Both the position numbers and the translations under genes were made by a program. Below, in pieces: positions 45,113 through 61,880 of a DNA stretch of 64,000 nt. Origin of the DNA: an uncultured Actinomycetes bacterium (GTDB taxonomy: Bacteria; Actinomycetota; UBA4738; HRBIN12); the NCBI GenBank assembly GCA_963792215.1, contig CAWBVL010000001.1, positions 385,646 to 449,645 of the forward strand. Direction: 5' to 3'. Position 1 is the first letter of the stretch; each line of letters starts with the position of its first letter. Under the pieces are notes generated by a model. The model had not been told where the DNA came from. It saw nothing but the letters and a program-made list of their open reading frames with translations, and did not search any database.

Positions 45113-45238
45113 CCCGTCTACCCCTCGAGATCGAGAACTGCCCGGGGGAGTGTGGCACGACACAACCCGGTTTCCGATAGGCCGATCGGCTGCGAGTGGC
45201 CGTGCCCGTCGGTGTGGGCCGGATGGCCGACCTGGGTG

Positions 45239-45730: not shown

Positions 45731-46003
45731 GTGAGGCCGCTCGACGGACCCCACGCACCGGTGGATCGACCGGCATGCTGGCGATGCGGCCGCCCGACCT
45801 ACGACCCCGACAAGCGTTCGGTGCCGTGGGCGCGAGCGGTGGCCGGCGGGCGGCAGGTATTGATCTGCCCGTCGTGTCAGGCGGACGCCGGCTGGGCCGA
45901 CGGGCTCGACCGGTGCGCTTCGTGCGGCGGCACGCGGTTGTCGATCCAGCTCGGCGATGTGGTCTGCCGAGCGTGCGGACACACCGCGAAAGCGGGCGCT
46001 TAG
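45731..46003 (+). CDS. Cys-rich zinc-ribbon protein. Its last 10 nt overlap tRNA-Val.
   Basis: CWRCG...CPSC...CASCG...CRAC gives four CxxC pairs. GTG start. Confidence 0.4.
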   Translation: MRPLDGPHAPVDRPACWRCGRPTYDPDKRSVPWARAVAGGRQVLICPSCQADAGWADGLDRCASCGGTRLSIQLGDVVCRACGHTAKAGA

Positions 46004-46066
46004 CTCAGCTGGAAGAGCGTCGCCCTTACAAGGCGAAGGTCGGGGGTTCGAGCCCCTCAGCGCCCA
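45994..46066 (+). tRNA. tRNA-Val (TAC).
   Basis: Acceptor gggcgct/agcgccc, D-arm gctc-agctggaa-gagc, anticodon stem-loop tcgcc-CTTACAA-ggcga, T-loop ttcgagc. Confidence 0.88.
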
Positions 46067-46186
46067 CTATTGAGGGACCAGGAGAGCCGTCCTGGCAGAG
46101 CGACGCTCGGGTTCCGCAGCTGCTGCTATGAGTGTTGCACCGACGGCATCGCGACGAGGTTTCGCCGTTAAGCGTAGGGTCTTGGC

Positions 46187-47632
46187 ATGCGGGCCGCTGC
46201 CCTCAGCCGCCGCTCTGTTATCGGGAGGCGCCTGGCACTCGTGCTGATCACTGCGCTTCTGGTTGGCGTGCCGCTATCGATCACGACCTCCGCTGAAGCG
46301 CGGCCAGCTATCGACCTTCAGCTGGTGAGCCAAGATCCGTTCCACAACCGGGGGTACGAGCATCGGAGCGAGGTCGAGCCTGACGTCGTCGCGCACGGCC
46401 GGACGGTTGTCGCGACGTATCAGGTCGGCCGAGCCGCTGAAGGGGGATCGGTCGCGATCGGTGTGGCGACATCCACGGACGACGGTCGCTCGTGGTCGGA
46501 CCGCATCCTGCCTGGCGCCTCGGCCGCGACGGGCGGACGGTACGAACGCGCGAGCGATCCGAGCGTCTCGTACGGCGCGCAGGGCCAGGGCTGGCTCGTC
46601 GGCTTCCTCGGCCTGACACTCACCGGGCGGTTCCAGATCCCGAGCCACACCGCCGTCTTGGTCGCGCGCTCGCAGGACGGTAGCTCGTTCGCTCGTCCCC
46701 TCGTCGTCGCGAGCGCGCCGCACGGTGTCGTTTTCGACAAGCCGTGGGTGACTTGCGACGATCACCCCTCCAGCCCCTACTTCGGCCGATGCTATGCCCT
46801 ATGGGACGAACTCGGTCTCCGTCGAGGCCCATATGACGTCGTGTTGGCGTCCACGTCTCCCGATGGTGGCCGCCATTGGAGCCCTCCAGTGCGAACCGCC
46901 GACCGAGCGCAAGGCTTCGGCGTCATCCCGCTGGTCCGATCGGATGGCACTGTCACGGTCGTCTACCGCAACATCCAGCACCCGCTGCAGCCGATGATCG
47001 CAGCGTTTGCATCGTCGAACGGCGGTCGCTCTTGGGGAGACTCGTCGGCGATATCGACGGTTCGTCGATCTCCTCGAGAGCTGCCGGTTCGCGACCCAGG
47101 GTTCCCGTCCGCCGCGATCGGACCACGTGATTCCTTGTATGTCGCTTGGTCCGATTGCCGTTTCGAGCGATCGTGTGCCGTCGATGACCTCGTCGTGTCC
47201 ACTTCGAGCGACGGCAAGACATGGACACCTCCCGAGGTTGCGGTGCGCGCAGACCCTGTGACTGCGACCTCGCTCGTGACGCCGGGCCTCGCCGTTGATC
47301 CTCGTGGCAGGCAGTCCCGAGCGGCGATCGTCTTCTATGCCGTCGGCGGTCAAAGATGCTCGAAGTTCGGCCCTCCGTCCGTGTGTTCGGTATCCGTCGG
47401 CTATGCGTCGTCGCGACGAGGCCGCTGGGGCGCTCCCATCGCGCTCGGGTGGCGCATGCGACCGAGCTGGTTCCCGTGCACACCTGCGGGATGCATGTGG
47501 GGCGACTACGTCGCCGCTACGTTCTTGCGCGATGGCCGCGTGGCGACGATGCTGCCTTTGGCGAAGCGTCCCGCTCACGAACTGGACGTCGCGATGTACG
47601 CGCCAACGGGAGGTCTGTCCATTCGACCGTAG
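46187..47632 (+). CDS. Secreted BNR/Asp-box repeat (sialidase-fold) protein.
   Basis: Signal peptide. Asp-boxes STDDGRSW, SQDGSSF, SPDGGRHW, SSNGGRSW and SSDGKTW. Confidence 0.75.
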   Translation: MRAAALSRRSVIGRRLALVLITALLVGVPLSITTSAEARPAIDLQLVSQDPFHNRGYEHRSEVEPDVVAHGRTVVATYQVGRAAEGGSVAIGVATSTDDGRSWSDRILPGASAATGGRYERASDPSVSYGAQGQGWLVGFLGLTLTGRFQIPSHTAVLVARSQDGSSFARPLVVASAPHGVVFDKPWVTCDDHPSSPYFGRCYALWDELGLRRGPYDVVLASTSPDGGRHWSPPVRTADRAQGFGVIPLVRSDGTVTVVYRNIQHPLQPMIAAFASSNGGRSWGDSSAISTVRRSPRELPVRDPGFPSAAIGPRDSLYVAWSDCRFERSCAVDDLVVSTSSDGKTWTPPEVAVRADPVTATSLVTPGLAVDPRGRQSRAAIVFYAVGGQRCSKFGPPSVCSVSVGYASSRRGRWGAPIALGWRMRPSWFPCTPAGCMWGDYVAATFLRDGRVATMLPLAKRPAHELDVAMYAPTGGLSIRP

Positions 47633-47744
47633 TAGGGTATGCGCCCCGCTGAACGGACCTACGTTCCCGGACAGGGCGGAGTGTTGCGCCTCAGGAGGGC
47701 GACGCTCACAGCGTCGTTTTCGATCGCCTCGATGTCAATGACGG

Positions 47745-48233
47745 CTAAGCGATGATGGTCAGTCGAGCCCTTTGGCAATCGTTGGTGGGATCACCGTCGC
47801 CCCCCTGACCGTTCGAGGAACAGAACGTGATCCGGACGTGCTGACCTGGCTGACCGACGGCGTACGCCGTCACGCGCACGATGGCGTAGTCACCCTCTGG
47901 CACATCCGACCATTCACACGAAGGCGTGTCGGGGGAGACGTTGTTGAAGTCCCCACTCTCTGAGTTCGGGATGATGCAGACCTCGCTCTTGATGTAGAGA
48001 CGGCGGCTATCGCTATAGGTAACGAACAGGTCAGAGGCCGTGCCCGGGCCAACGTTCTTGGCGAATGCCCGGAACGTCACGGGATACTGATCCTTCACGG
48101 TCGTGGAGGGGTGACCGTCGACCAGCGAACGCACTCGATAGACAGTGAGGTCTGGGCTGGATGCTTGTGCCGACGGTACGGCAAGTGCCAACAAAAGCAC
48201 CGCACCGATCGTGGCCTTCCCCAAGCTCTTCAT
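47745..48233 (-). CDS. Secreted beta-sandwich (CARDB-like?) protein.
   Basis: GGAGGGG RBS. Signal peptide MKSLGKATIGAVLLLALAVPSAQA. Confidence 0.55.
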   Translation of the reverse strand: MKSLGKATIGAVLLLALAVPSAQASSPDLTVYRVRSLVDGHPSTTVKDQYPVTFRAFAKNVGPGTASDLFVTYSDSRRLYIKSEVCIIPNSESGDFNNVSPDTPSCEWSDVPEGDYAIVRVTAYAVGQPGQHVRITFCSSNGQGGDGDPTNDCQRARLTIIA

Positions 48234-48320
48234 GCGAAACCCCTCCATCCTTAGGCTCAACCGTTCGGCCTTCTTGTGGATCTTGATCCTCTTCGCGCTT
48301 GCTGTCGAACGACGCGATGC

Positions 48321-48547
48321 CTAGTTCGGAGCGAAGGTGATCTGTCCCGTCCACGTGCCGACCAGGCCCGCGGCGAGCTGCGCCTCGTTGATGACACCGC
48401 CGCCATAGGCGTTCGCGTACGCCCCTGTTCCTGACGTGATGGCCTTCGTCACGCCCGTCGGCACCGAGGATGCCACTGCCTGCCTGGGAACCACAGCCAC
48501 GAAGCGACGACACACACCGTCGCCAAGAGCAGGAATCGTCTACGCAT
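48321..48547 (-). pseudogene. Small secreted protein with an apparent frameshift near 48500.
   Basis: The signal peptide MRRRFLLLATVCVVAS is in one frame. The mature part (VAVVPRQAVASSVPTGVTKAITSGTGAYANAYGGGVINEAQL...) is in the next. The length is 227 nt. Confidence 0.45.
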
Positions 48548-48552
48548 CTCGC

Positions 48553-48741
48553 TCAGGTCGCCCTTGTCCTGGGTGGCTCCGCGGCCAGGTTCGCGTACGC
48601 CTCCGAGAGGTGAAGGATCAGCCGCGCCTGCTCATCGTCCTTCACGTCTGAGACGAGCTTGGCGATCTTGTCGGCGATGGCCTCGCGAGCCGCCGCCGCG
48701 CTCCGGGCCGCTCCGGACTGTTCGTGCTGTGTTTCCGTCAT
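48553..48741 (-). CDS. Small helical hypothetical protein (62 aa).
   Basis: GGGGAGG RBS. It ends 6 nt upstream of the next gene. Confidence 0.45.
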   Translation of the reverse strand: MTETQHEQSGAARSAAAAREAIADKIAKLVSDVKDDEQARLILHLSEAYANLAAEPPRTRAT

Positions 48742-49038
48742 GAGGTCTCAACCTCCCCTGCGTGATAGTAGGCATGCCTCCTTCGACTGTGCGTCAAGAC
48801 ATCGGCCATCCGTGTAGCACCACGATACGGTCGAGTTTCTGAGTCACGCGCCCGGCCCCCTTGTTCCAGTTCGGGGAGGCGCGAACGCTTACACCTTGCG
48901 CAGCGAGGGCGGAGCGGACTCGGCGGCCCCCGACGTCGGTGAGTTGTCGATCGGTTGTCGCGAGTCTCCCCAATGTCGGTCATGGTTCCTTCGAGAGAGC
49001 CCTCGCCATTATCCTGCTCTGACTGAGGGAGGAGTGGC

Positions 49039-50034
49039 ATGGCGAAGAAAGGCATCCTCGAGCGACTAGCTGCTGGTCCGGTGGTCGGCGACGGCGGGTA
49101 CCTCTTGGAACTCGAGAAGCGGGGGTACGTCCAGGCGGGACCGTTCACCCCGGAGGTCTCGATCAGGCATCCCGAGGCGCTCCTCCAACTGCATCGGGAG
49201 TTCCTCCGCGCGGGCGCTGAAGTCATGCAAGCGCTCACGTTCTACGCCAGTGAGGAGAAGCTCGCGACCGTCGGGCTCGGCGACAAGGTCGATGAGATCA
49301 ATAAGGCTGCCACGGCGATCGCACGCGAGGCCGCGAACGAGGGCGATGCGCTCGTCGCCGGCAATCTCACGCTGACGTGGTCCTACGATCCAGCCGCCCC
49401 GGGCTCGGCCGACGTCGTGCGGCGGCAGTTCGATCGGCAGCTGCAGGACCAGATGGAGCTCGGCATCGACTTCGTGATCTGCGAGACCTACAGCTTTATC
49501 GGTGAGGCGTTGATCGCAACGGAGCAAGCGAAGCAGACCGGCTTGCCGGTCATGACGACGATGTCGTTCACGAAACTGCCCCACGCCGAGGAGGGCGACT
49601 CCGCGGCCGAATGCGCGAAGAAGCTCGTCGATGCGGGCGCCGACGTCGTTGGTGTCAACTGTCTGCGGAGCCCGGAAGCCATGCTCCCGCTGGTACGCGA
49701 GATGCGCGAGGCTGTGTCCGGCTACGTCGCGGCGCAGCCCGTTGCCTACCATGTCCCGGCCGAGAGTCCGGACTTCACGTCGCTGCCGCAGTTCCCCTAC
49801 GAGCTCGACAGACTGCAGCTGACGCGAAGGGATTTCGCCGAGTACGCGAAACAGGCGCTCGACATGGGCGTGAACTACATCGGATCCTGTTGCGGCGCGG
49901 TCGCCGAGCACGTCCGCGCGATGGCGAAAGTCATCGGCAAGCTACCGGCGGAGGAGCGCGCGTGGAAATCACCCACCGGCAAGCCGATGTCGGGCTACGA
50001 GTACTACGAACACGACGAGAAGGAGCCTGTCTAG
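49039..50034 (+). CDS. Homocysteine S-methyltransferase (BHMT-like) family protein.
   Basis: GAGGGAGGAG RBS. GDGGYLLELEKRGY...TF and VGVNC...GSCCG zinc-site cysteines. Confidence 0.82.
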   Translation: MAKKGILERLAAGPVVGDGGYLLELEKRGYVQAGPFTPEVSIRHPEALLQLHREFLRAGAEVMQALTFYASEEKLATVGLGDKVDEINKAATAIAREAANEGDALVAGNLTLTWSYDPAAPGSADVVRRQFDRQLQDQMELGIDFVICETYSFIGEALIATEQAKQTGLPVMTTMSFTKLPHAEEGDSAAECAKKLVDAGADVVGVNCLRSPEAMLPLVREMREAVSGYVAAQPVAYHVPAESPDFTSLPQFPYELDRLQLTRRDFAEYAKQALDMGVNYIGSCCGAVAEHVRAMAKVIGKLPAEERAWKSPTGKPMSGYEYYEHDEKEPV

Positions 50035-50081
50035 CAGCGTCTGTGCCTCGGTGAAACGGGGTTCTGGGGGCAGGAACGTAA

Positions 50082-50165
50082 GGGCACTCCGAACCAGCGG
50101 CTCAGGTCTCTCCTTACGTTGCCTTTACAAGGCGAAGGCCGGGGGTTCGAGCTCCTCAGCGCCCA
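50082..50165 (+). pseudogene. Degenerate tRNA-Val copy A. The 3' half is well conserved. A possible full-length pseudo-tRNA has a disrupted, expanded D-arm.
   Basis: cgttgcctttacaaggcgaaggccgggggttcgagctcctcagcgcccac differs from the tRNA 3' segment at about 4 of 50 positions. The upstream gggcact could pair 6/7 with agcgccc. The copy is 84 nt against 73 nt for the tRNA. Confidence 0.6.
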
Positions 50166-50282
50166 CCCGGTGCGAGTGGGTCGGCAGGCAGCATCTCGAG
50201 ATAGCGCTGCTCGACGGTTGGACCTGGGTGCGACGGGTAGAGATGGTCGCGAACATCGACCGAGCCGCGAGAGGTTCTTCAC

Positions 50283-51521
50283 TTGCCACCCATCAAGGAT
50301 CCGCCGCCCCTCGGGGCCGAACCCGATTCGTGGGAACGCCGGTGGCCCCCAGTGACGTATTGGGCAAAGGTCGTCGTGACGGTGGTCGCCACCGTCTGGG
50401 TGATGTTCGCGATCAGGACGGTCGCGGCCATCCTGCTGCTGGTCGCCATCTCGCTCGTCTTGGCCGTCGGAGCCGAGCCCGCGGTTGCCTGGCTCACGCG
50501 GAAGGGTCTTCGGCGCGGCACCGCCGTGTTCGTGATCCTCGCGACCGTACTCCTGGTGTTTGGGCTCTTCCTTGCGCTCATAGTCCCGACCGCGGCTCGA
50601 CATATCGGGACGCTGTCGACCGATCTTCCCGCCTACCTCAGCCAACTGCAGGCCCGCGGGGGATGGGCGGGGTCCTTCCTGGCGCGGACGCAGGCTGTCG
50701 CCAAGGTCCAGGCATTCCTGGATTCGCCGCCCGCACAGATCGGAAGCTCGATGAGCACCTTGCTCGGCGTCGCCGGGAAGGTCGGAACGGCCCTCGTCGC
50801 GCTCGGAACGACCGCGGTTCTGACCGTGTACTTCATGCTGTCGCTTCCCGGTCTGCGCTCGCGTGCCCCCATCCTGTTCCGCCCCGAGATCCGGGACCGC
50901 ATGGAACCGGTGATCGAACAGTCCATCTCCCGGATCGGCGCGTACGTCGCCGGCAACGGCGTGACGTCGATCGCCTGCGCGATGGTCACTGCTGTGGCAT
51001 TGCTGGTGCTCAACGTCCCCTTCGCGATCCCGCTGGCGATCTGGGCCGGGTTCGCGGATCTGATCCCTGTGGTCGGGTCCTACGCTGGGGCGATCCCGGC
51101 GGTCGTCGTCGCCTTCTTCGTCTCACCGCTCGCCGGCCTTGCGGTAGCCGTGTTCTTCGTTGTCTATCAGCAGTTCGAGAACTACGTGCTGGTGCCCCGT
51201 GTGATGCACGGGGCCGTGGATCTGTCGCCCGCGTCGGTGATCGTGGCGACACTCATCGGCGCCTCGCTGGCCGGCTTCGTCGGGGCCTTGCTCGCGCTGC
51301 CGGTTGCGGCGACGATCAAGGTGCTCGTCATCGAGATCTGGCTGCAGGATCGGGTCGAGGAAGGCGACGACCTAGCGCGGCACCATCTGCGACGGGTACG
51401 CCGCCGAGCCCGTGCCGAACGCGCCGCGGCAGGAGGGCGTGCGCGGTGGTTGGATCGACTCCTGCCGACCAGGACGACGGAGCCGGCGTCGTCCAAACAC
51501 GCGGACCGCTCCTCGCTGTAG
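50283..51521 (+). CDS. AI-2E family (PerM/UPF0118) transporter.
   Basis: Eight-TM-like profile. ...FADLIPVVGSYAGAIPAVVVAFF...YQQFENYVLVPRVMH. The start is uncertain (TTG 50283). Confidence 0.78.
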   Translation: MPPIKDPPPLGAEPDSWERRWPPVTYWAKVVVTVVATVWVMFAIRTVAAILLLVAISLVLAVGAEPAVAWLTRKGLRRGTAVFVILATVLLVFGLFLALIVPTAARHIGTLSTDLPAYLSQLQARGGWAGSFLARTQAVAKVQAFLDSPPAQIGSSMSTLLGVAGKVGTALVALGTTAVLTVYFMLSLPGLRSRAPILFRPEIRDRMEPVIEQSISRIGAYVAGNGVTSIACAMVTAVALLVLNVPFAIPLAIWAGFADLIPVVGSYAGAIPAVVVAFFVSPLAGLAVAVFFVVYQQFENYVLVPRVMHGAVDLSPASVIVATLIGASLAGFVGALLALPVAATIKVLVIEIWLQDRVEEGDDLARHHLRRVRRRARAERAAAGGRARWLDRLLPTRTTEPASSKHADRSSL

Positions 51522-51631
51522 TTCCAACAGTCGGCTCTGACCTGGGGCCACGATCGCGTCAGGTGTGGGTACCGGCCGCCTCGTCGTCTGCCAGAGCCGT
51601 GGCCACGCACGTCTGAAATGAGCGCCGACTT

Positions 51632-52135
51632 TCAGGCAGCGCTAGCGCCGAGCGCGAGACCTCGGTCGATCTCGTCGCTCCGAAGGCGTAGAAGTTCTCG
51701 TTCCTCGGCCTCCGCCTGAGCGGCGAGGCGGTCTGCATCGACGACGGCGAGCCTCGCGTCGTAGGAAGCAGCACGCGCCATCGTTCCCCACAGCAGCCTC
51801 TTGCCCCATACACCGATAGCGAGCGCTTCGAGATCTTCGAGGAGGGTCGGGGCGTTGCCGATCGGCGCTGCATCGCGCAGCCACGTGAGCATCCCGCCCA
51901 CCACACCGACGCTTCGCGTCAGCACGCTCTCGCCCTGGCCCACGATCTCCAGTGCAGTGCGGATGGCCGCCTGCCCTTCCTCTATCTCGGTCCGGAGTGT
52001 GCGCATGTACAACCCCACCTCATCCTCGCCGTGCTGCTCGACGAGGCGGCTGGTGATCATCAGGGCAGCCTCTGAGCCGCCGAGATGATCGTTCAGGTAG
52101 GCGGCGAAGCTCTTCGCATCCATGCCGGCCGACAT
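51632..52135 (-). CDS. Hypothetical helical protein.
   Basis: This is the coding-looking C-terminal 167 aa of ORF 51632..52834. The upstream part of that ORF is antisense to the PP2C gene. Confidence 0.45.
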   Translation of the reverse strand: MSAGMDAKSFAAYLNDHLGGSEAALMITSRLVEQHGEDEVGLYMRTLRTEIEEGQAAIRTALEIVGQGESVLTRSVGVVGGMLTWLRDAAPIGNAPTLLEDLEALAIGVWGKRLLWGTMARAASYDARLAVVDADRLAAQAEAEERELLRLRSDEIDRGLALGASAA

Positions 52136-52342
52136 ACCCAGAAGCCGCAGTCTCACGCGGAGTTGGCGTGGATCGTCAGCCGGCGGACGCCGTGTGTCCT
52201 GCCGGCGTTGCTGATCGCCTTGGTCAGTTGGCCGAACACGGTGCCGAGAGGGGCCGCCAGTGGCGGCGTTGCCTTTCACGGTCTCGATCCCGTGTTCAGG
52301 AGCGTGTTGCCTTGGCGGAGCTCCATCACTCAGAGTGGCGGA

Positions 52343-53947
52343 GTGACGACCTTCGCCCCGATCGACGACCTCGAACGCCTCAAGCGCCTGCAGCGCGTGA
52401 GCGATGCCGCGCTCGCCCTCCTGTCGGTGGAAGACCTGCTCGACGAGCTCCTCCTGCGGGTTCGCGACATCCTCGGCGCGGACACGGCCGCCGTTCTTTT
52501 GTTGGACACCGAGAAGAACGAGCTCGTGGCCCGCGCGGCGAAAGGGATCGAAGAGGAGGTGGAGCGCGGAGTCAGGATCCCGGTTGGAAAGGGGTTCGCC
52601 GGTCGGATCGCGGCCGAGCGACATCCGGTAGCGCTTACGACCGTCGACCACACGACGGTCCTGAACCCGATCCTCGTCCAGAAGGGCATCCGTTCGCTCC
52701 TGGGGGTTCCGTTGATCGCGCATGGAGACGTCGTTGGGGTGCTCCACGTCGGGACGACTACTCCGCGCGTCTTCCAGCAGGATGAGGTCGAACTCCTCCA
52801 ACTCGTCGCAGATCGTGTCGCGCTCGCCCTCCAAGTACGTCTCGTGGAAAGCGCTCGCGTTGTCATCGATGCGTTCCAGCGCACATTCCTCCCCGACTCA
52901 TTGCCGTACGTACCAGGGCTCCGGGTGACGACGAAGTACTTGCCAGCGTCTTCCGACGTCGGCATCGGTGGCGACTGGTTCGATTCATTCCCGCTTCCCT
53001 CAGGTGACCTCGTCCTAGCGATCGGCGACGTGGCAGGCCATGGACTGCCGGCCGCCTCGCTGATGGGGAAGATGCGCAATGCGCTCCGCGCGTACGCATT
53101 ATTGGGCGGGACCGTCAGCGAGATCGCCGAGCGCTTGGGTCGGTATCACCGGCACTTCGGTGACGGAGAGCTGGTCACGCTGCTGGTCGGGGTGCTGACC
53201 AAAGACCTCTCGACCTTCCGGTTCGTGCTAGCCGGGCATTGCCCGCCGCTCGTGCTCAGCGAGAGGGGTGCCGCGTTCGCAACGATCTCCGAACACGTCC
53301 CTCCGCTCGGCGTGGACCGATCCAAACCCTTCATCGAGCACGAGCTACGGATCGACCGCGGGAGCATGCTCTTGCTGTACACCGACGGGCTTGTGGAACG
53401 TAGGGGCGAGTCGCTCGACGTTGGTCTCGAGCGGCTTCGGCGTACGGCCGAGCGATCGCTACCAGTACACGACGCCCCGGAGGCCATCGCCGCGCTGCTC
53501 GAGGAACAACTCGAGGGAGGCCGTCCTGCTGATGACGTGGCGGTGTTGCTCCTCCAACGGCAAGCCATCCCATCACTCGAGTTGGAGTTCGCCGTGCCGG
53601 CACGCGCGAGGTCGCTTGTGGATATCCGACGAGCCGTCGGCCGTTGGCTCGACGATATCGGTGTCCCCCCTGTGACGGCGATGGAGATCGTTACCGCTGT
53701 CTCGGAGGCTTCGACGAACGCCATCGAACACGCCTACGGGCCGGCCGGCGGCACCATCAGCATCGCCGGAGATACCAAGGACGAGGTCGTCGAGATGAGG
53801 GTCCGCGATACGGGAGGATGGCGAGGCAGCTCCCGCGGGGGTCGCGGCAACGGCCTTCGCCTTATCCGTGGACTTATGGACGAGGTCACCGTGGAGCCAA
53901 CGGATCAAGGCACCACGGTGCGGATGCGACGGAAGGCTGGATCTTGA
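52343..53947 (+). CDS. GAF, PP2C (SpoIIE) phosphatase and HATPase_c (RsbW-like) fusion protein.
   Basis: GAF region (LLDTEKNELVARAAKG...GKGFAGRIA). PP2C region (GGDWFD...IGDVAGHG...LYTDGLVE). C-terminal anti-sigma kinase-like region (EASTNAIEHAY...VRDTG). The start is uncertain (GTG 52343). Confidence 0.78.
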   Translation: MTTFAPIDDLERLKRLQRVSDAALALLSVEDLLDELLLRVRDILGADTAAVLLLDTEKNELVARAAKGIEEEVERGVRIPVGKGFAGRIAAERHPVALTTVDHTTVLNPILVQKGIRSLLGVPLIAHGDVVGVLHVGTTTPRVFQQDEVELLQLVADRVALALQVRLVESARVVIDAFQRTFLPDSLPYVPGLRVTTKYLPASSDVGIGGDWFDSFPLPSGDLVLAIGDVAGHGLPAASLMGKMRNALRAYALLGGTVSEIAERLGRYHRHFGDGELVTLLVGVLTKDLSTFRFVLAGHCPPLVLSERGAAFATISEHVPPLGVDRSKPFIEHELRIDRGSMLLLYTDGLVERRGESLDVGLERLRRTAERSLPVHDAPEAIAALLEEQLEGGRPADDVAVLLLQRQAIPSLELEFAVPARARSLVDIRRAVGRWLDDIGVPPVTAMEIVTAVSEASTNAIEHAYGPAGGTISIAGDTKDEVVEMRVRDTGGWRGSSRGGRGNGLRLIRGLMDEVTVEPTDQGTTVRMRRKAGS

Positions 53948-54336: not shown

Positions 54337-54419
54337 TTGCGTGACCTCCACCACGCAGGTGGCGGTGCTACTCGACTTAAGGCGTGACACCATTTTGGTC
54401 CGATCCACCGCGCCGAAGG

Positions 54420-54644
54420 TCATGCGCGGGTGCCTTCGTCTCCGTTCGGTGGTGTCGGAGGGAACTCTGCCGGTGCCGGCTTGCCCGGCAGGTCGGGGGC
54501 GGGTTCCCCCGGAAGCGGGTCGTTCCCTGGGGCCGGACGTGGCCGAGGTTGCCCGTCGGGCTCCTCGGGTGGCACCGGCTCGATCGGCGGATCTTCCGGC
54601 ACGGGCTTGATCGGCGGGTCTTCGTTGGGCGCGTCCTCGCGCAT
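54420..54644 (-). CDS. Proline-rich acidic small protein.
   Basis: GAGGAGAG RBS. PEDPPIKPVPEDPPIEPVPPEEP repeats. The low-complexity sequence makes this uncertain. Confidence 0.3.
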   Translation of the reverse strand: MREDAPNEDPPIKPVPEDPPIEPVPPEEPDGQPRPRPAPGNDPLPGEPAPDLPGKPAPAEFPPTPPNGDEGTRA

Positions 54645-54901
54645 GCTTCACACTCTCCTCGTCGGTGGGGCGGGAGGTACCCCCAGGCCACGTCGCCAAA
54701 CAGCGGATCGGATGTGTGCCGGTCCCTTCATCGTGGGAGGTTCCCGCGCGGGCGAAGAAGCCGTCTCCTGCTGTGTCGACCTCCTAGCCGCGGTGAGCGG
54801 CCGAGCATCGCACGGACGACAGGTGGGTCGGAGATCATCCTCGCGGGGTCGACCCGCCGACCTTGAGGGCGTCTCGAGGGTCGGGGCCGGTGCCCGGATC
54901 C

Positions 54902-55762
54902 TCAGGCGCGGCGACGGCCGCCGATGCGCGGCGAGCCGAATCGCATCACCCGTCCGCCGAAGGCGATCGCGCAGACCGCTACCCATGTCCATCCGAGGAT
55001 CAACCCGCCGATCACGTCGGACACCCAGTGGACGCCGAGGAACACGCGTGAGCACGCCACGGCGACCGCGATCGCGACGGCTGATCCCGCGAGGATCCTT
55101 CGGCCGCGGGGACCCCAGTCGCGACCGACGACGAGCGCGACGGCGATGAACGTCGCGGCGGCCGCGGTGGTGTGTCCGCTCGGGAACGACGGCCCACTGA
55201 AGCCGGCTAGGGGATGGAGGTCGGGTCGCGCCCGCTGCACGACGTCTTTGATGAGGTTCGAGAGCAGCAACTGCCCCCCGATGACGAGCGCGAGGAATAC
55301 CGGGATGGCAGGGTTCCGCCACCGCCAGTACGCATAGACGGCCGCGAGGACACCCACGACCACGACCCCGACGGTGGAACCGAACCAGGTGACGAGGTCG
55401 AAGACGGAGATCGACATCGCCGTCATCCGCGTGTTTGACCACTGTCCCACAGCTCGATCCACCTGCACCAGACCGGTCTGGGTACGCACCATGTAGACCA
55501 AGATCCCGAGAGCGATCCCTGCACCGATGACGGCCACGAGGCACACGGTGAGCGCTAACCCGGTCGCGACCCCGCGCCGGAACCGAGCCCGGAGGAAGAT
55601 CCGGACCGACCGGCGCCGGCCCAGCTCATCACCGATCGCGCCGGTCGCGACCAACGCCGGATCCGCACGCGGCGTCGCACCGAACAGCAGTGCGGCGAGG
55701 AGCCCAGCAGCGGTGGCTACCGCCGCAACGACTCCGACCACTTCCATCAGGTCTCCGATCAC
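54902..55762 (-). CDS. PAP2-family membrane phosphatase.
   Basis: KDVVQRARP, PSGHT and SRVFLGVHWVSDV motifs. Confidence 0.8.
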   Translation of the reverse strand: MIGDLMEVVGVVAAVATAAGLLAALLFGATPRADPALVATGAIGDELGRRRSVRIFLRARFRRGVATGLALTVCLVAVIGAGIALGILVYMVRTQTGLVQVDRAVGQWSNTRMTAMSISVFDLVTWFGSTVGVVVVGVLAAVYAYWRWRNPAIPVFLALVIGGQLLLSNLIKDVVQRARPDLHPLAGFSGPSFPSGHTTAAAATFIAVALVVGRDWGPRGRRILAGSAVAIAVAVACSRVFLGVHWVSDVIGGLILGWTWVAVCAIAFGGRVMRFGSPRIGGRRRA

Positions 55763-55835
55763 GAGGTACGACGTCCATCCACGAGGTAGGACGTCGCACG
55801 TTTACCCCGGGCCTCAGATTGGAAAACCAAGCCTC

Positions 55836-56666
55836 ATGGATGACACAGCGAACCGGATGGCGTATCGAGGCACCCACGAGGGGAACGGTGACGTATCGAT
55901 CTTCGATCCCCGTGTGGACGGTCCGGCAACAACCGTGGCGCACGCGTTCCGCGGACCCGTCCGCGCCTGGGCGGCGTCGACCTTCGCCGCCTGGGCGGTC
56001 GTGGCCGCGGCCCTTATCGGGCTGGGGTGGGTCTTGGTCCATGAGATCCTTCCGGATGGTGTGGCCGCCTGGGATCGCTCGGTCGCGACCTGGTTCGTCG
56101 CGCAGCGCACCGACACGCTCAACACCGTCACGGCCTTCGGGTCCATGCTCGGGTCGACGTTCGTCGTCATCGGGATCGCCGTGGTGGTGGGGATCGTCCT
56201 CGCGATCCGTCACCATTGGCGCGAGGTCGGTTTCCTGGCGGCAGCCCTGTTGATCGAGGTCGGTGCCTTCCTCGCGACGGCGTTCGTGATCAACCGGCCG
56301 CGGCCCGCTGTGCCCCAGCTCGATGTTGCACCCCCGACATCGTCGTTCCCATCGGGGCATACCGCAGCGGCATTGGTCCTCTACGTTGGCATCGCGATCA
56401 TCGTGTGGACGCTCACCGACAACCGGGCGCTGCGCATCCTCTTCTGGACACTCGCGGTCTTGGTTCCGATCTTCGTTGCGCTGTCCCGGTTGTACCGAGG
56501 GATGCATCACGCGACCGATGTCATGGCATCCGTGCTCCTCGCGATCGCGAGCCTCACCTGTGCGGTGATGGTCACACGGGTCACATCCGCCGTCTCGGAT
56601 GCGAGCCGCGGGGAGCCGGCGAAGGCAGAGAGGTCGACGTCCGCGCGCCATGAGGTCTCGGCATGA
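55836..56666 (+). CDS. PAP2-family membrane phosphatase (second copy, divergent from the first).
   Basis: NRPRP, PSGHT and SRLYRGMHHATDV motifs. Confidence 0.8.
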   Translation: MDDTANRMAYRGTHEGNGDVSIFDPRVDGPATTVAHAFRGPVRAWAASTFAAWAVVAAALIGLGWVLVHEILPDGVAAWDRSVATWFVAQRTDTLNTVTAFGSMLGSTFVVIGIAVVVGIVLAIRHHWREVGFLAAALLIEVGAFLATAFVINRPRPAVPQLDVAPPTSSFPSGHTAAALVLYVGIAIIVWTLTDNRALRILFWTLAVLVPIFVALSRLYRGMHHATDVMASVLLAIASLTCAVMVTRVTSAVSDASRGEPAKAERSTSARHEVSA

Positions 56667-57553
56667 CCTCGGTCGCGGTGATCGCACATAGCGCTAAGAC
56701 GTTCGATGGAGGGCTGCCCGCTCTCCGTCGAGCGCTGGCCGGATACGGGTTCGTCGATCCGCCATGGATCGAGGTCGCGAAGGCGAAGAAGATCCCCAAG
56801 CAGGCCCGCCGACTCCTCGACGAGGGCGCGGATGTCTTGTTCGTGTGGGGTGGCGATGGCACGGTGCAACGTGCGCTCGATGCGGTGGCCGGTAGCGGCA
56901 TCCAGGTCGCGATCTTGCCCGCGGGAACGGCGAACCTCTTCGCCACCAATCTGGGGATACCCCGGGACCTGGAAGGAGCCGTGCGTGTCGGACTGCACGG
57001 CGCCCGGCGAACGATCGACCTCGGGAAGACCAACGGTGAGCACTTCGGTGTCATGTCCGGCGTGGGCCTGGACGCGTTCATGATCCGGGACGCGGACGTC
57101 GGGGGCTTGAAGGACCGGATGGGGTCGCTCGCCTACGTTTTCACCGGCGCCAAGAACCTCTCGCGCGACCCGGTGAAGATGCGCATCGAGGTGGACGGCG
57201 CGACGTGGTTCGATGATCTCGCGAGCTGTGCGCTGATCGGGAACCTCGGGGAGGTCGTCGGCGGGATCAGCGCGTTCCCGGATGCACGGCCGGACGACGG
57301 TGTGCTCGACATCGGTGTGATCACCGCCGACAGCGGCCTCGACTGGTTACGAACCCTATCCCGTTCCATCGTCGGCGACCCGTCGAGATCGCCGTTCATC
57401 CGCATGACGACCGGGAGATCGTTCGATATCCGGACGAGCGCGCCACTGCTCTACGAACTGGATGGCAGCGAGCGCAGCACGACGACCCATATCAAGACCA
57501 AAGTGAAGCCTCAGGCGATCACCGTGTGTGTGCCGGAGATGGAGGGATCGTGA
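56663..57553 (+). CDS. Diacylglycerol/lipid kinase (DAGK catalytic domain, YegS/LCB5-like).
   Basis: ATGA overlap. VWGGDGTV and PAGTANLFA motifs. Confidence 0.83.
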   Translation: MTSVAVIAHSAKTFDGGLPALRRALAGYGFVDPPWIEVAKAKKIPKQARRLLDEGADVLFVWGGDGTVQRALDAVAGSGIQVAILPAGTANLFATNLGIPRDLEGAVRVGLHGARRTIDLGKTNGEHFGVMSGVGLDAFMIRDADVGGLKDRMGSLAYVFTGAKNLSRDPVKMRIEVDGATWFDDLASCALIGNLGEVVGGISAFPDARPDDGVLDIGVITADSGLDWLRTLSRSIVGDPSRSPFIRMTTGRSFDIRTSAPLLYELDGSERSTTTHIKTKVKPQAITVCVPEMEGS

Positions 57554-58503
57554 GCACTGCGAACGTAGTCCCCGAGACCTACGGGCTGACTGGCGACGAC
57601 GCGAAGGAGACGCTCGAGCACGTCGGGCGGTGGCAGCTCATGCGAGATGCCTTCCAGCGACTGCGGTGGGCCGATGGATTCAGTCATGCGCGCTCGATGG
57701 CTTATGCGACGACATTGATCTTCGTTCAAGGAGTTATCGCGCTCGTCGGCCTGGCGAGCATGCTGGGGACGGGCGGCGCTCGAGACCTGATCGTCAACAC
57801 GCTGCGGTCGGTCGCACCGGGGCCGACGGGGCAGGTGCTGACGGAGGCCGCGGGTCAGGCGCAGCAGGCTGGCTCCCAGCACCCGGTGGCGCTGATCGCG
57901 GGATGCATCGGTGCGCTGGTGACCGGCGCAGTGCTGATGGGCCAGATCGAGCGCGCCTTGAACAGGCTCTACGGCGTCGAACAGGATCGCCCCGCGTTGC
58001 ATAAATACGGGAGGGCGGTCGTCCTGGCGTTGACCGCCGGCGGCGCGCTGGCGGTAGCCATCGTCGCCCTCGCGGTCGGCCGGAACATCGGCTCTGCCAT
58101 CCACACCTCGGCCGTCGCCACGGCCTGGAACCTGCTGCGTTGGCCGCTTGCGTTGGGTCTGCTGGGTGTCGGCACCGCGCTGCTCTTCCGACACGCGCCG
58201 AGACGGCACCAACCAGCGTGGTCATGGCTCGCGTTCGGCGCGGCGATCGCCGTCGTGCTGCTGCTCGTCGTCACGGCGGGGCTCGATCTGCTCTTCCAGC
58301 TCAGCTCGACCTTCGGCACGACATATGGTCCACTGGCCGGTATCGTCGCGCTGATGTTCTGGGCGTTCGCGGCCTCGATCTCGTTCCTGTACGGCGCGGC
58401 GCTCGCCGCGCAGCTCGAGGCCGTCCGGGCAGGCGCCGCGTCCCCGCAGGACCTGCGGAAAGCTGACGTGGCGACGAGTGAGCCGGCGACGATGATCCGG
58501 TGA
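57550..58503 (+). CDS. YihY/BrkB-family membrane protein.
   Basis: GTGA overlap. SMAYATTLIFVQ...YGPLAGIVALMFW...SFLYGAA profile. Confidence 0.75.
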   Translation: MSTANVVPETYGLTGDDAKETLEHVGRWQLMRDAFQRLRWADGFSHARSMAYATTLIFVQGVIALVGLASMLGTGGARDLIVNTLRSVAPGPTGQVLTEAAGQAQQAGSQHPVALIAGCIGALVTGAVLMGQIERALNRLYGVEQDRPALHKYGRAVVLALTAGGALAVAIVALAVGRNIGSAIHTSAVATAWNLLRWPLALGLLGVGTALLFRHAPRRHQPAWSWLAFGAAIAVVLLLVVTAGLDLLFQLSSTFGTTYGPLAGIVALMFWAFAASISFLYGAALAAQLEAVRAGAASPQDLRKADVATSEPATMIR

Positions 58504-59669
58504 TGGGTGGGGCCGATCGCACGCTCGCCGTGCGGCGGATGCTCGAGGGCATCATCGGTGTGCCGTTCACGGAGGGGAACACCGTCTCGATCCTCCGCAA
58601 CGGAGACGAGATCTTCCCGGATATGTTGGAGGGGATCGGGACCGCCGAGCACACGATCGATTTCTTGACGTTCGTCTATTGGAGCGGCGAGATCGGGACT
58701 CGGTTCGCCGAGACGCTCTCGGAACGAGCGCGGGCGGGTGTGCGCGTGCGCCTGCTGCTCGACAGCTGGGGGGCACATCCGATCGATCGGTCCTTGGTCG
58801 ACGAGATGCAAACCGCGGGCGTACACCTCGAGTGGTTCCGGCCCCTGCGGAAGTTCGAGCCGCACAAGATGGACCACCGCACGCATCGCAAGGTTGTGAT
58901 CGTCGACGAATCGATCGGGTTCACGGGCGGCGTTGGTATCGCCGACGAGTGGCAGGGCGACGCACGCGACGAATCGGAGTGGCGCGACACCCACTTCCGC
59001 GTACAAGGCCCGTGTGTCGACGGGCTTCGCGCGGCGTTCCTCGACAACTGGCTCGAATGCGACACCACCATGTACGAAGCGGGAGTGGATCGGTTCCCAC
59101 GTCAGGAGCAGGCGGGCGACTCGGTGATCCAATGCGTTCGAGGAGCGTCAGAAGCGGGGATGAGCGACATCTCGACCGCCTTCAACGCGCTGCTCCTGCT
59201 CGCTGAGGAACGTGTCCGGATCGCCACCGCGTACTTCGTTCCCGACGAAGAGATGACGCAGCGGTTATGTGAGACCGCGGACCGCGGCGTCTCCGTAGAG
59301 GTCCTCTTGCCTGGCCCGAACGCCGACAAGCGATTCGTGCAGCTCGCCGGCGAGGCCGAGTTCGCGGAGCTGCTTGATCACGGCATCCAGATCGCGTACT
59401 TCCAGCCGTCGATGCTGCACGCCAAGATCATGACCGTCGACGGCATCCTCGCGATGGTGGGCTCTGCCAACCTCAACGTGCGTTCCACGGAGCGCGACGA
59501 GGAGATCAACCTGATCATCCTGAACGGCGGGGTTACCGCCACGCTCGACGCACACTTCGACGAAGATCTCCGGCGGAGCGAATGGGTAACACGCGACGAG
59601 TGGGAGGATCGATCCATCACCCAACGCGTCAAAGAAGGCCTCACGCGACCGCTCCAGGATCACGTCTGA
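58500..59669 (+). CDS. Phospholipase D / cardiolipin synthase-like protein with two HKD motifs.
   Basis: GTGA overlap. HRKVVIVDESIGFTGGVGI and HAKIMTVDGILAMVGSANLN. Confidence 0.83.
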   Translation: MMGGADRTLAVRRMLEGIIGVPFTEGNTVSILRNGDEIFPDMLEGIGTAEHTIDFLTFVYWSGEIGTRFAETLSERARAGVRVRLLLDSWGAHPIDRSLVDEMQTAGVHLEWFRPLRKFEPHKMDHRTHRKVVIVDESIGFTGGVGIADEWQGDARDESEWRDTHFRVQGPCVDGLRAAFLDNWLECDTTMYEAGVDRFPRQEQAGDSVIQCVRGASEAGMSDISTAFNALLLLAEERVRIATAYFVPDEEMTQRLCETADRGVSVEVLLPGPNADKRFVQLAGEAEFAELLDHGIQIAYFQPSMLHAKIMTVDGILAMVGSANLNVRSTERDEEINLIILNGGVTATLDAHFDEDLRRSEWVTRDEWEDRSITQRVKEGLTRPLQDHV

Positions 59670-59740
59670 CCAGCACTTTCGTTCCCCCCTTATCAGGCGA
59701 AAGTCGGGGGTTCGAGCCCCGCAGCCCCCACGAGCAGATC
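59665..59740 (+). repeat. tRNA-Val-derived repeat B.
   Basis: tctgaccagcactttcgttccccccttatcaggcgaaagtcgggggttcgagccccgcagcccccacgagcaga. It starts inside the cls stop codon. Confidence 0.75.
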
Positions 59741-60001
59741 GCGCCGCCGTGCGTGTTCAGAGCTGTGCGTGTTCAGACTCGAATCGAGGGGTTTGCCTCC
59801 GGATAGCGGCGCTCCAAGCGCCTTTCGTGGACGGCGGAGACCTCATGGCGGAGGAACCCGTACTCCGCGATGACGCTCAACGCACCGGATTGACCAGTGA
59901 GGAAACCAGGTCTAGCCTCGCCGAGGAGCAACAACGGGCTTCGGGCGTGCCGGTGTGGCGAGCCCGATCGGTGGTCTGGTCGGATCCGGGGGAGGATCGG
60001 C

Positions 60002-60499
60002 ATGAGACTCACCAAACTTGCACCCGCGGTAGTGCTTACTTGTATCGCGCTGTTGGCACCACCAGCGGCGGCGAACACGAGGGTCACGACTGTCGATCAC
60101 GTCAATGACACGTTCGTCGATTCGGAGATATGCAGCTTCGACATCACGTTCCACGTCTACGGATCGCTCAAGTTCGCGGACTTCTACGACAACAGCGGGT
60201 CCCTTTACAAGACGATCGGAAGGGCCGGTCCTGGGCCGTTCAGGGTCACAGTGACTGCTGGGCGGACCACACTCACGCAGCAGAACAGCAGCTTCACAGA
60301 GATCACCACCTACAACGCGGACGGGTCGGTGAGGACACTGACGGACAACGGGCCGTTCAACAAGTTCACGGCCCCCGGGGGAGGCATCGTGTGGTTGGAC
60401 ACGGGCCATCTCGTCGTCGACGGGGACTTCAACGTTCTCTTCGTGGCCGGGCCCCGCCAGAATGGTGAGTTCGACGCTTTCTGCGCTGCGTTCACATAG
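60002..60499 (+). CDS. Small secreted protein (165 aa), function unknown.
   Basis: GGGGGAGGA RBS. Signal peptide MRLTKLAPAVVLTCIALLAPPAAA. Confidence 0.55.
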   Translation: MRLTKLAPAVVLTCIALLAPPAAANTRVTTVDHVNDTFVDSEICSFDITFHVYGSLKFADFYDNSGSLYKTIGRAGPGPFRVTVTAGRTTLTQQNSSFTEITTYNADGSVRTLTDNGPFNKFTAPGGGIVWLDTGHLVVDGDFNVLFVAGPRQNGEFDAFCAAFT

Positions 60500-60617
60500 G
60501 CACCACGCGCTCTTGTAGTCGACGAGGTGACCTGCGGCCGGAATCAGCGCATCGCGCCCCCTGCCTGCAACGCCGCGGACCGGGTGGTGCTGCACGGCAC
60601 ACAGAAGGACTCATGTC

Positions 60618-60690
60618 TCTGACCAGCACTTTCGTTCCGCCCTTACAAGACGAAGGTCGGGGGTTCGAGCCCCTCAGCGCCCACAGCAGA
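60618..60690 (+). repeat. tRNA-Val-derived repeat C. It is the copy closest to the tRNA.
   Basis: tctgaccagcactttcgttccgcccttacaagacgaaggtcgggggttcgagcccctcagcgcccacagcaga. The 47-nt tRNA-homologous part has 1 mismatch. Confidence 0.8.
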
Positions 60691-60765
60691 ACCGAGGCTC
60701 ACGTTGCGCGGACTATTCGTCGTCGCGCTTCGGTCATCCTTGTGCCCCAGAGGAGGTCCACGCCA

Positions 60766-61716
60766 TCAGTGAGTCGGTACGCCGGGGTGCTTCCAGCGCA
60801 GATATATGCGCATGTCGATCGTGCGCGATGGGCCCGCCCCGTCGGCATCGACCGCATACCAGCGGAGACCTGCCGGGCCGTGGGTCGCGTACGCGATCGA
60901 CTTCCCGTTCGGAGACCACACGAACCTCCTCTGCGGCTCGTAGTTGTTGAGGAGGACTCGGACGTCAGTGCCATCCGCGTTGATGACATAGAGGCGTCCG
61001 CCCCCAGGCTCCAGATCGTTCATGACGGCGATGTGCGCACCGTCCGGCGACCACTCGATCTCGTCCACCGAGTCGAGGTCCTTTCCCGGCAGATGCACCA
61101 GCATTGAACGCTTGCCGCTTTGCACGATCTCTGAATAGATCGTGCCTCCGCGCGCGCCGAACACGAGGCGCGACCCGTTCGGAGACCTCGCGGGAGCCGA
61201 GGTGACATCGCCGTTCACCCCATTGAGGTTCAACCCACTCAGGGCCGGCCCACCGAGGACACTCCGCCCCCCGGGCGAGGTGTCAGCCCGATCCTGCGGG
61301 TTCGCCGTCTGTGCCACGCTCTGCGGGTTCGCCTTCGGCGTAACATCCTGCGCTCGGAGGCGACCGAACGGCCCACCCGTTGTTGCGATCCAGAACGCCG
61401 CCGCCGTCACAGCGCCGACGATCACCCACGTGCGTCGGCTCACTGCCCCGAGTACGACCGGCGCGCTGTTGTCCTCTTCTTGAGACACCTCAACGGGAGT
61501 GTTGGATGCGCGGTCGTCTGCCGAGGGAGGCACGCGGGAACTCGGAGTGACCCCGAGCGGTTTCGTGGGCTCCCGGAGTCGGTACAGGGGCGCCTTGCAC
61601 CGAGGACACGAATCCGAGTCGGTCTCGCCGATCCAGTCACACCGAAGGCAGATGGCATCGTCGCCGACTCGCGACTCTTGAGGGGGAGGGTCGCTACCTG
61701 ACACAGTCTCCAGCAT
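60766..61716 (-). CDS. Zinc-ribbon, TM helix and TolB-like (PD40) propeller protein.
   Basis: CLRCDW...CPRC, TM helix WVIVGAVTAAAFWIA, and repeats WSPDGAHIAV and WSPNGKSIAY. Confidence 0.6.
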   Translation of the reverse strand: MLETVSGSDPPPQESRVGDDAICLRCDWIGETDSDSCPRCKAPLYRLREPTKPLGVTPSSRVPPSADDRASNTPVEVSQEEDNSAPVVLGAVSRRTWVIVGAVTAAAFWIATTGGPFGRLRAQDVTPKANPQSVAQTANPQDRADTSPGGRSVLGGPALSGLNLNGVNGDVTSAPARSPNGSRLVFGARGGTIYSEIVQSGKRSMLVHLPGKDLDSVDEIEWSPDGAHIAVMNDLEPGGGRLYVINADGTDVRVLLNNYEPQRRFVWSPNGKSIAYATHGPAGLRWYAVDADGAGPSRTIDMRIYLRWKHPGVPTH

Positions 61717-61796
61717 CCGCTGATCTTGGCACGATCGGTCTTGTCTGGGATCTTGGACCTCCTCAGCGGATCGAAGCTCGGTGCAGGTTCGCCGAG

Positions 61797-61840
61797 CTTC
61801 TACAAGGCGAAGGGCGGGGTCGAGCCCCTCAGTGCCCCCC
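61797..61840 (+). repeat. tRNA-Val-derived repeat D (the most decayed).
   Basis: tctacaaggcgaagggcggggtcgagcccctcagtgcccccc aligns with ttacaaggcgaaggtcgggggttcgagcccctcagcgcccac with two 1-nt gaps and a few mismatches. Confidence 0.6.
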
Positions 61841-61880
61841 AAGCCGATCGCTTCGCCGGCCTCAGCATGGGTCTTTGACA

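Follow-up and report, generated by a model that had tools for sequence, protein, structure and literature searches.

Tandem attachment-site scars and integrase-free cargo blocks at a tRNA-Val(UAC) integration hot spot of an uncultured actinomycete

The stretch of DNA analysed here (the window, 64,000 nucleotides; positions 385,646 to 449,645 of the forward strand of contig CAWBVL010000001.1, assembly GCA_963792215.1) comes from an uncultured soil bacterium of the Actinomycetes with about 70% GC (GTDB lineage Actinomycetota; UBA4738; HRBIN12). It contains an intact gene for tRNA-Val(tac), anticodon UAC, at 45994-46067 on the + strand (ARAGORN; Rfam tRNA model, 70.2 bits), followed by four partial copies of the same gene, A to D. 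A first-pass annotation, made from the letters of the sequence alone, had described a tRNA-Val followed by four copies of its 3' segment in the same orientation, and our analysis confirms this arrangement, coordinates included. Each copy is joined on its upstream side to further repeated sequence, which we call the arm; arm and tRNA fragment together are called a unit. The tRNA gene and the four units are as follows.

45994-46067, + strand: tRNA-Val(UAC), putative attL, i.e. the regenerated target gene (ARAGORN, Rfam)
50071-50166, + strand: unit A, a decayed proximal arm (50071-50118) and the tRNA fragment (50119-50166); nhmmer E=3.9e-14, model positions 48-152
59664-59731, + strand: unit B, proximal arm CTGACCAGCACTTTCGTTC and then the fragment; E=7.3e-13
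60600-60684, + strand: unit C, an arm of about 40 nt and then the fragment; E=1.6e-22 (arm-only model 60599-60636, E=0.011)
61782-61840, + strand: unit D, the most decayed, a short arm (GGTGCAGGTTCG) and the fragment; E=7.2e-09

All four copies lie on the same strand as the tRNA, each of them starts at the 5' strand of the anticodon stem, and the 5' half of the tRNA is kept in none. Compared with the last 48 nt of tRNA-Val, copy A has 4 differences, B has 7, C has 2 and D has 10, the last figure including a 2-nt gap. Copy C is the best kept of the four, as had been noticed before, with a single difference over 47 nt. When the window was searched with the 19-mer of the T arm, allowing at most 3 mismatches, 5 matches were found against 0.12 expected, namely the tRNA-Val itself, copies A, B and C and an unrelated tRNA-Met. 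Copy D carries its 2-nt deletion within this 19-mer, in the T loop, and was found via alignment and nhmmer; it lies in the gap between the stop codon of a GMC oxidoreductase gene (61881) and the likely start of a zinc-ribbon/PD40 gene on the - strand (about 61716). Pairwise alignment showed that A, B and C also have 20-60 nt in common upstream of the fragment (...GGCAC.C.GAA..GGCTCAG.TCTCTGACCAGCACTTTCGTTC), and a profile hidden Markov model (HMM) built from foreign copies alone recovers all four, at 50071-50166 (A), 59664-59731 (B), 60600-60684 (C) and 61782-61837 (D). The figure of about 47 nt given previously for the repeated segment corresponds to its tRNA part; the unit as a whole is longer and extends upstream into the arm.

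Unit B has two peculiarities of its own. The stop codon of the PLD gene lies inside its conserved proximal arm (59664-59669, CTGACC), i.e. gene and arm abut without a spacer. Just past the unit, at 59749-59777 on the + strand, there is a direct repeat, GTGCGTGTTCAGA and, after a 3-nt gap, GTGCGTGTTCAGA again, that is not seen after the other units and could be a candidate protein-binding site on the opposite side of the core. ARAGORN also reports a 'tRNA-???' with a 4-base anticodon at 51034-51110 (+ strand), a position within the gene of the AI-2E transporter. Rfam has no match at this place at E<=1, and the call is probably false.

A metagenome scan with the proximal arm and the T loop retrieved four soil contigs (L084, L087, L088 and L089; contigs and relatives are cited by such numbers throughout) that have the same junction and a much longer conserved arm. 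Together with the relatives described below, eleven full units on at least 6 contigs can be aligned over about 155 nt and have a common layout. From the outside inwards this consists of two GCGTAACA(C/A) boxes 13 nt apart, three to four GGTACTSA boxes spaced at 10 nt, about 20 nt of variable spacer, the sequence CTCTGACCTGCAGGTTCG or its variant CTCTGACCAGCACTTTCG, and the 48-nt tRNA part. The arm is about 105 nt long; its boxes are conserved and its spacers vary, as would be expected for protein-binding sites. In the window and in about 1.4 Mb of further DNA every match of an arm-only HMM is joined to a tRNA-Val fragment. Of the arm in the model, the window copies match no more than the proximal 10-57 positions, and, to judge from this match, units A-D are decayed members of the same family.

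The arm is unrelated to the 5' half of the tRNA and looks like the arm of an attP site with predicted arm-type integrase sites, its phased direct repeats being comparable to the arm-type sites of the lambda-family integrases (L5, pSAM2, lambda). The differences between fragments and tRNA cluster in the first six positions, that is, in the 5' strand of the anticodon stem at the left edge of the identity block, as would be expected if the crossover takes place at the anticodon loop.

The same locus was found in relatives by using as an anchor the gene of a 139-aa cyclic nucleotide monophosphate (cNMP)-binding protein which lies to the left of the tRNA, and up to 10 kb of each locus was read. Orthologues of this protein (63-96% identity) adjoin tRNA-Val in L001, L093-L101 and L105. 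Two relatives, L093 and L094, were compared with the window by blastn, and in both the upstream flank is syntenic and has 73-77% nucleotide identity. In L001, a metagenome-assembled genome of GTDB, the cNMP gene, tRNA-Val and a luciferase-like monooxygenase gene stand in a row and there are no repeats. In L093, an 878-kb ENA contig whose core genes have about 77% nucleotide identity to the window, the tRNA has four fragments behind it, at 7708-7650 (truncated in the T loop), 7257-7215, 6060-6012 and 3831-3792, and the tRNA and the monooxygenase gene, adjacent in L001, are 3.54 kb apart. Positions 6060-5079 of L093 can be aligned in one piece with 9957-8990 of L001 (82% identity), and the alignment covers both the 3' part of the tRNA and the monooxygenase gene; therefore the 3.54 kb was inserted into the L093 tRNA at the anticodon stem. 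The tRNA of L093 is rebuilt and the old 3' end is still joined to the old neighbour gene, which, as read from the alignment, is the mark that an integration of the integrase type leaves in a tRNA gene. The two relatives show the empty and the filled site, with the boundary at the fragment, and the aligned sequences demonstrate an insertion into the tRNA bounded by direct repeats. The proposal of the first-pass annotation that the copies are attachment (att) scars left by integration into the 3' end of a tRNA is borne out by this pair.

Further arrays were found at the same tRNA, so that fragment counts are four in L093, two in L097, one in L100 and three in L101. The two units of L097 accompany an 8.3-kb RHS toxin block and a DUF2652 block, the single unit of L100 a 2.6-kb block, and the three of L101 blocks with an FAD oxidoreductase (1.5 kb), an amidase (2.1 kb) and a guanylate cyclase plus two genes (3.7 kb). 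The cargo is unrelated among these arrays and the window. No fragment array was seen in L001, L095/L096 and L105 within the 4-10 kb read. Over all arrays block sizes are 0.4-9.5 kb, often with a single gene, and in an all-against-all protein comparison only the extracytoplasmic function (ECF) sigma and PD40 families, and translated units, recur. The array of L101 is the most telling one: its cores have 1 mismatch in 141 nt, its arms are complete, the leaders from core to next gene are 70-120 nt long, and all five genes are co-oriented with the tRNA. A comparison across relatives had been suggested earlier, with the reasoning that an identical, fixed content in relatives, or a dispersed element unrelated to the tRNA locus, would speak against integration; what we see at the same tRNA-Val is a different cargo in each of eight related loci, and we found no support for a dispersed element. 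The 3' half of tRNA-Val(UAC) is a hot spot of integration, with variable cargo and a conserved arm architecture.

The repeats could also be explained without any integration, as remains of tandem tRNA-Val duplicates, as a dispersed repeat, or as a structured RNA that resembles the 3' half of a tRNA. Tandem tRNA genes are common in bacteria, and four unit-bearing contigs (L084, L087-L089) contain no tRNA gene, both of which would suit such an origin. However, all copies start at the anticodon stem and never keep the 5' half, to which the arm is unrelated, the comparison of L001 and L093 shows an insertion, and, the arrays apart, an HMM search of the 64-kb window and of about 1.4 Mb of other loci found no copy. 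A structured RNA element was rejected: Rfam recognizes only the true tRNA in the window and, in the related contigs, gives one sub-threshold partial tRNA match, which is the unit core at the end of L084, and the consensus fold of the 11 units has no hairpin in the arm and is without covariation (covariation term +0.15). We consider an origin without integration very improbable.

The DNA around and between the units of the window is organized as follows.

45239-45658, - strand: cNMP-binding protein, 139 aa, the conserved left flank (Pfam cNMP_binding)
46068-50070: block 1, 4.0 kb, 64.7% GC; BNR protein (+), DUF11-like protein and two small open reading frames (-), homocysteine S-methyltransferase (+) (Pfam)
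50167-59663: block 2, 9.5 kb, 66.6% GC; AI-2E transporter, GAF-SpoIIE-HATPase, STAS, two PAP2, DAGK, BrkB and PLD proteins (Pfam)
59732-60599: block 3, 0.87 kb, 62.8% GC; one secreted protein of 165 aa, 60002-60499 (+)
60685-61781: block 4, 1.1 kb, 65.3% GC; zinc-ribbon/PD40 beta-propeller protein, 60766 to about 61716 (-)
61841-64000: DNA beyond unit D, 66.1% GC; GMC oxidoreductase (-), adenylate cyclase (-, cut by the window end)

This is accessory-type cargo in every block, with the gene content described by the first reading. Block 1 is without similarity to the sequence at the same position in any relative compared, and the window has no match to the monooxygenase gene, which is the ancestral neighbour in the loci of L001 and L093. 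The GC (guanine plus cytosine) content of the blocks, 62.8-66.6%, compares with 70.2% in the 20 kb upstream; because it is still low (66.1%) in the 2.2 kb past D, the island probably runs past the window end and its outer boundary lies beyond it.

Some cargo genes have counterparts elsewhere. The secreted protein of block 3 is in other DNA the last gene of an operon of an ECF sigma factor, a PD40 propeller and a secreted protein (L092 7539-9689). Next to the att units of other contigs one again finds ECF sigma and PD40 genes, therefore this module appears to be a frequent cargo (the observation covers L087, L088, L089 and L105). A homologue of the same secreted-protein gene (83% nucleotide identity) occurs near another tRNA gene, in the extra DNA that L091 (a 3.13-Mb contig) carries downstream of tRNA-Asn, where about 16 kb (433-16945) correspond to 3.5 kb in the window (13529-17123). 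No tRNA-Asn fragments were found in the window or in L091, and the stretch looks like another variable tRNA-side region, one without att scars. The tRNA-Asn and the tRNA-Met of the window were both checked for similar fragment arrays, and none was found.

On the left side of the tRNA, a small zinc-ribbon reading frame (about 45760-46003, +; ending ...CPSCQADAGWADGLDRCASCGGTRLSIQLGDVVCRACGHTAKAGA*) runs 10 nt into the tRNA-Val gene. L100 has the same translated frame, and the DNA is kept upstream of the tRNA in L001, L093, L095, L097, L101 and L105. Farther left, an S8 subtilase gene (43022-45163, -) lies between the cNMP-binding and an amidohydrolase gene in the window, L094, L097, L100 and L105. 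L093 does not have it, and the gap between the same two genes in L001, about 900 bp, is too short for it. This is a second presence/absence difference, on the opposite side of tRNA-Val. Contig ends also fall in this region: L081, a 3.7-kb contig of Logan ERR11594401, is 100% identical to 60858-64000 of the window, adds 560 bp and breaks 174 nt after unit C, and L094 ends exactly within the tRNA-Val gene. It seems that assemblies tend to break here, which is what repeats or strain heterogeneity would be expected to cause.

The att sites call for a recombinase, and a recombinase gene is what the blocks do not contain. About 17 blocks are fully bounded by att copies (4 in the window, 3-4 in L093, 2 in L097, 1 in L100, 3 in L101, 2 in L089 and 1 in L084), and searches with Pfam, and for some proteins PHROGs, gave no integrase or integrase remnant in any of them. 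Within the array region of the window, Pfam detected no integrase, excisionase, replication, transfer or relaxase domain in the open reading frames (ORFs), nor phage structural, packaging or replication genes, and a six-frame scan of the unannotated stretches gave no recombinase, excisionase, replication or transfer domain. Both results uphold the earlier impression that such genes are missing. In the remainder of the window, the ORFs of 1-10,000 and of 13,600-29,500 were scanned, with 18748-20572 and 29459-31798 outside the scan, and no integrase, excisionase, replication or transfer domain was found; 10,000-13,600 matches dnaG and rpoD of L091, and 32,300-43,009 matches core genes of L093 that have no recombinase domain. 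The genes that adjoin the array, those of the cNMP-binding and the small zinc-ribbon protein, are not recombinases, and the 3.54-kb insert of L093, from the tRNA to the ancestral neighbour gene, contains no integrase. The unannotated proteins (320 aa in L093, 311 aa in L100, 358 and 156 aa in L101, and ORFs of the window) gave no integrase-like match in Pfam or PHROGs; among the eight compared with PHROGs one, from L101, weakly matches a family of unknown function. The all-against-all comparison did not reveal a shared unrecognized recombinase either.

One account of this absence is plain decay, in which each block is the remnant of a complete element (actinomycete integrative and conjugative element (AICE), prophage or island) whose own integrase was later deleted. 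Decayed elements in tandem arrays are the common case in the literature (PMC5704250, PMC9513070). In addition, the arms and cores of the window are degraded, block 3 is the lone last gene of an operon that has three genes elsewhere, and in L093 one unit breaks off within the T loop and there is pseudogene-like sequence. For this window we regard plain decay as a serious rival. Nevertheless, the absence extends over about 17 complete blocks from 7 arrays or contigs, without even a detectable remnant. Integrase genes normally adjoin attP, so that a deletion would have to take the gene next to attP and yet spare the 105-nt arm each time. Moreover, L101 with its near-perfect cores, complete arms and intact, tightly packed genes would need three recent, clean deletions. 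All considered, we find plain decay rather unlikely as the general explanation.

At the other end of the scale, the arrays might be the work of a dedicated capture system similar to an integron, in which cassettes of 1-8 genes, each with one site of about 155 nt, are inserted at tRNA-Val and excised again by a recombinase encoded at a fixed host locus elsewhere, much as IntI acts on attC cassettes or XerCD on elements at dif. Cassettes are indeed compact and have short leaders, the site is conserved across at least 6 genomes, and neither a cassette nor the inner 3.54-kb insert of L093 contains a recombinase. In our tally 24 genes are co-oriented with the tRNA and 10 are opposite (binomial p=0.024). 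This bias is modest, however, and three relatives have no array at all. No candidate recombinase was found, the genes adjoining the array are of other kinds, and the site has no conserved hairpin of the attC type. An integron-like system in this strict sense is improbable. A related and somewhat wider proposal, namely that this lineage of soil Actinomycetota has an undescribed cassette-capture system at tRNA-Val(UAC), where a recombinase encoded elsewhere inserts, stacks and exchanges integrase-free cassettes of 1-8 genes, is less far-fetched, even though we hold it to be unlikely.

The reading that we favour, with a probability of roughly 0.6, is the tandem accretion of integrase-less cassettes, similar to cis-mobilizable elements (CIMEs), at a tRNA-Val hot spot, with the integrase supplied in trans. 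A circular DNA carrying attP, i.e. the arm of about 105 nt and a tRNA copy that begins at the anticodon stem and reaches the 3' end, would have recombined with tRNA-Val. The recombinase would be of the lambda-type tyrosine integrase kind, and the crossover would take place in or beside the anticodon loop, so that the sequence left of the crossover would come from the incoming, imperfect copy and that on the right from the chromosome. Each event would rebuild the tRNA from the incoming copy and push the old 48-nt 3' end outward, behind the arm of the incoming DNA. Repeated events, at the tRNA or at internal copies, may have stacked the at least 4 blocks of the window. The integrase could have been provided by a helper element that was once present in tandem and then left, or by a gene located elsewhere in the genome. 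The type of the recombinase, the position of the crossover and the supply in trans are what we infer.

We think that an integrase acting in trans is more likely than a separate deletion from every block. The main reason is L101: its three compact cassettes have near-perfect cores and complete arms and contain no integrase, and three recent, independent and clean deletions of an integrase gene are unlikely. Among the options named by the first-pass annotation (a stack of old, stripped-down integrations, recombination among att scars, a recombinase encoded elsewhere), L101 makes the evidence lean towards a recombinase elsewhere combined with accretion, while plain decay keeps a place for the copies of the window. 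With their arms decayed, the latter are probably no longer substrates. The good preservation of copy C had been taken as a departure from simple sequential decay. The observation is correct, but it need not conflict with accretion, because internal att copies, too, can recombine with incoming DNA and a composite array can travel as a whole, so that age would not have to rise with the distance from the tRNA. Either course would account for the younger look of C compared with A and B.

There are several points that weigh against this accretion in trans. Firstly, no free attP with these arms, no helper element and no integrase was found, the IMG/VR, phage and plasmid collections included. Secondly, lambda-type systems usually need sites on both sides of the core, and a conserved arm was not seen on the downstream side, where only short motifs recur (CGATCYA, CTGCAGG). 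Thirdly, the unit truncated in the T loop next to pseudogene-like sequence in L093, and the degraded arms of the window, indicate that loss by deletion does happen. Fourthly, L093 has its fourth, shorter fragment beyond the monooxygenase gene, so that the outer limit of its island is out of view; the outer ends of the arrays and the 10-kb reading limit leave room for an integrase just out of view, except in the L093 insert. Finally, the four contigs mentioned above carry units without a tRNA gene.

The searches of the collections deserve a few details. In IMG/VR the proximal arm was matched twice, by chance and within genes, neither of two versions of the tRNA core had a match, and the distal arm gave one chance match. 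Three phased GGTACTSA boxes were found in 4 contigs. The two high-GC ones among these viral contigs, L106 (2041-2066) and L108 (4284-4309), have 3-4 phased GGTACTGA repeats without a tRNA part. In L106 the repeats lie between a primase/helicase gene and the terminase genes, and in L108 they adjoin an AAA-ATPase gene, about 1.2 kb upstream of the terminase genes. We considered these repeats as possible instances of the same arm and rejected them: motif and phasing are the same, but they are probably unrelated, as there is no tRNA part and chance is plausible among tandem 10-mers. In blastn comparisons of the full unit with the phage and plasmid collections only the tRNA part was matched and the arm was not.

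It is useful to compare the locus with known systems. Accretion arrays and CIMEs are established structures, and in the accretion model for ICEs (integrative and conjugative elements) and CIMEs a helper integrates in tandem and then leaves (PMC5704250, PMC9513070). A close likeness is to ICESt1/CIME of Streptococcus thermophilus and to the AICE/DAICE arrays at a tRNA-Arg of Streptomyces, which also consist of tandem blocks separated by direct repeats of the 3' end of the target (PMC5704250, PMC9513070). As in CIME and DAICE arrays, the blocks keep their att sites without integration or transfer genes and the content varies between strains. Every block of the window is bounded by the tRNA or by fragment copies and is devoid of int, xis, relaxase and Tra domains, which is the att arrangement of a CIME; the likeness is one of att sites and gene content, with mobilization forming no part of it. 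The genes that define an AICE (int, xis, a replication gene and an FtsK-like tra gene) were not found in the array of the window. The differences from CIME and DAICE arrays are that all of the about 17 blocks are without an integrase, that no helper is in view, and that the blocks are very small, many of them with a complete arm.

A second parallel is found in the islands beside the tRNA genes of Prochlorococcus, in which full-length and partial tRNAs are scattered and which mostly lack the hallmark genes of elements; in these tycheposon islands, too, newer insertions push the older ones outward (10.1101/2020.12.28.424599). The differences are that integrase-bearing tycheposons were found there and none here, that the phylum is another one, and that the att unit of our locus has a long arm with 2+4 direct repeats.

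With regard to the site itself, the unit seems similar to the att sites of the pSAM2, SLP1 and L5 types, since it uses the same segment of the tRNA and has direct-repeat boxes beside the core. In pSAM2/SLP1-type elements and in phage L5-type sites the identity segment begins in the anticodon region and extends to the 3' end of the tRNA, and direct-repeat arm-type sites stand beside the core. Unlike these elements, our arrays have no int, xis, rep or tra genes that we could find, and the arm is unmatched in plasmid and phage collections. The resemblance to integron arrays concerns the organization, i.e. compact cassettes each with its own site, a single chromosomal location, a recombinase outside the cassettes and an orientation bias; the differences are that there is no IntI, attI or Pc beside the array and that the site is a copy of a tRNA 3' half rather than a folded attC palindrome. 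Integrative mobile elements exploiting Xer (IMEX; CTX, TLC, VGJ) have no integrase, stack at one site, dif, and use XerCD encoded elsewhere. There, the target is dif and the enzyme XerCD, whereas here the target is a tRNA gene and the repeats of the arm point to a lambda-type integrase.

We read the locus as a structure of a known kind whose form is unusually compact and integron-like, and the unusual features are the absence of an integrase over many arrays, the small, compact cassettes and the conserved long arm. The window is an old, decayed example of it, while the same hot spot in relatives carries fresh integrase-free cassettes with a distinctive att unit.

Islands beside tRNA genes are a main route by which bacteria gain accessory genes, and it is often unclear how island DNA without mobility genes has arrived and how it spreads. 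This lineage shows the process unusually cleanly, since a site that is empty, another that is freshly filled, and arrays that are old and decayed can be placed side by side, and the conserved, easily recognized attachment unit can be used as a search probe. Should the blocks be decay products only, the locus would be an ordinary but well-documented case of accretion. If, on the other hand, the cassettes travel without an integrase of their own, the cassette principle of integrons and of the dif-exploiting elements would extend to tRNA targets, and there would be a handle for finding the recombinase; and a true cassette-capture system would be functionally integron- or IMEX-like, built on a tRNA target and a lambda-type arm.

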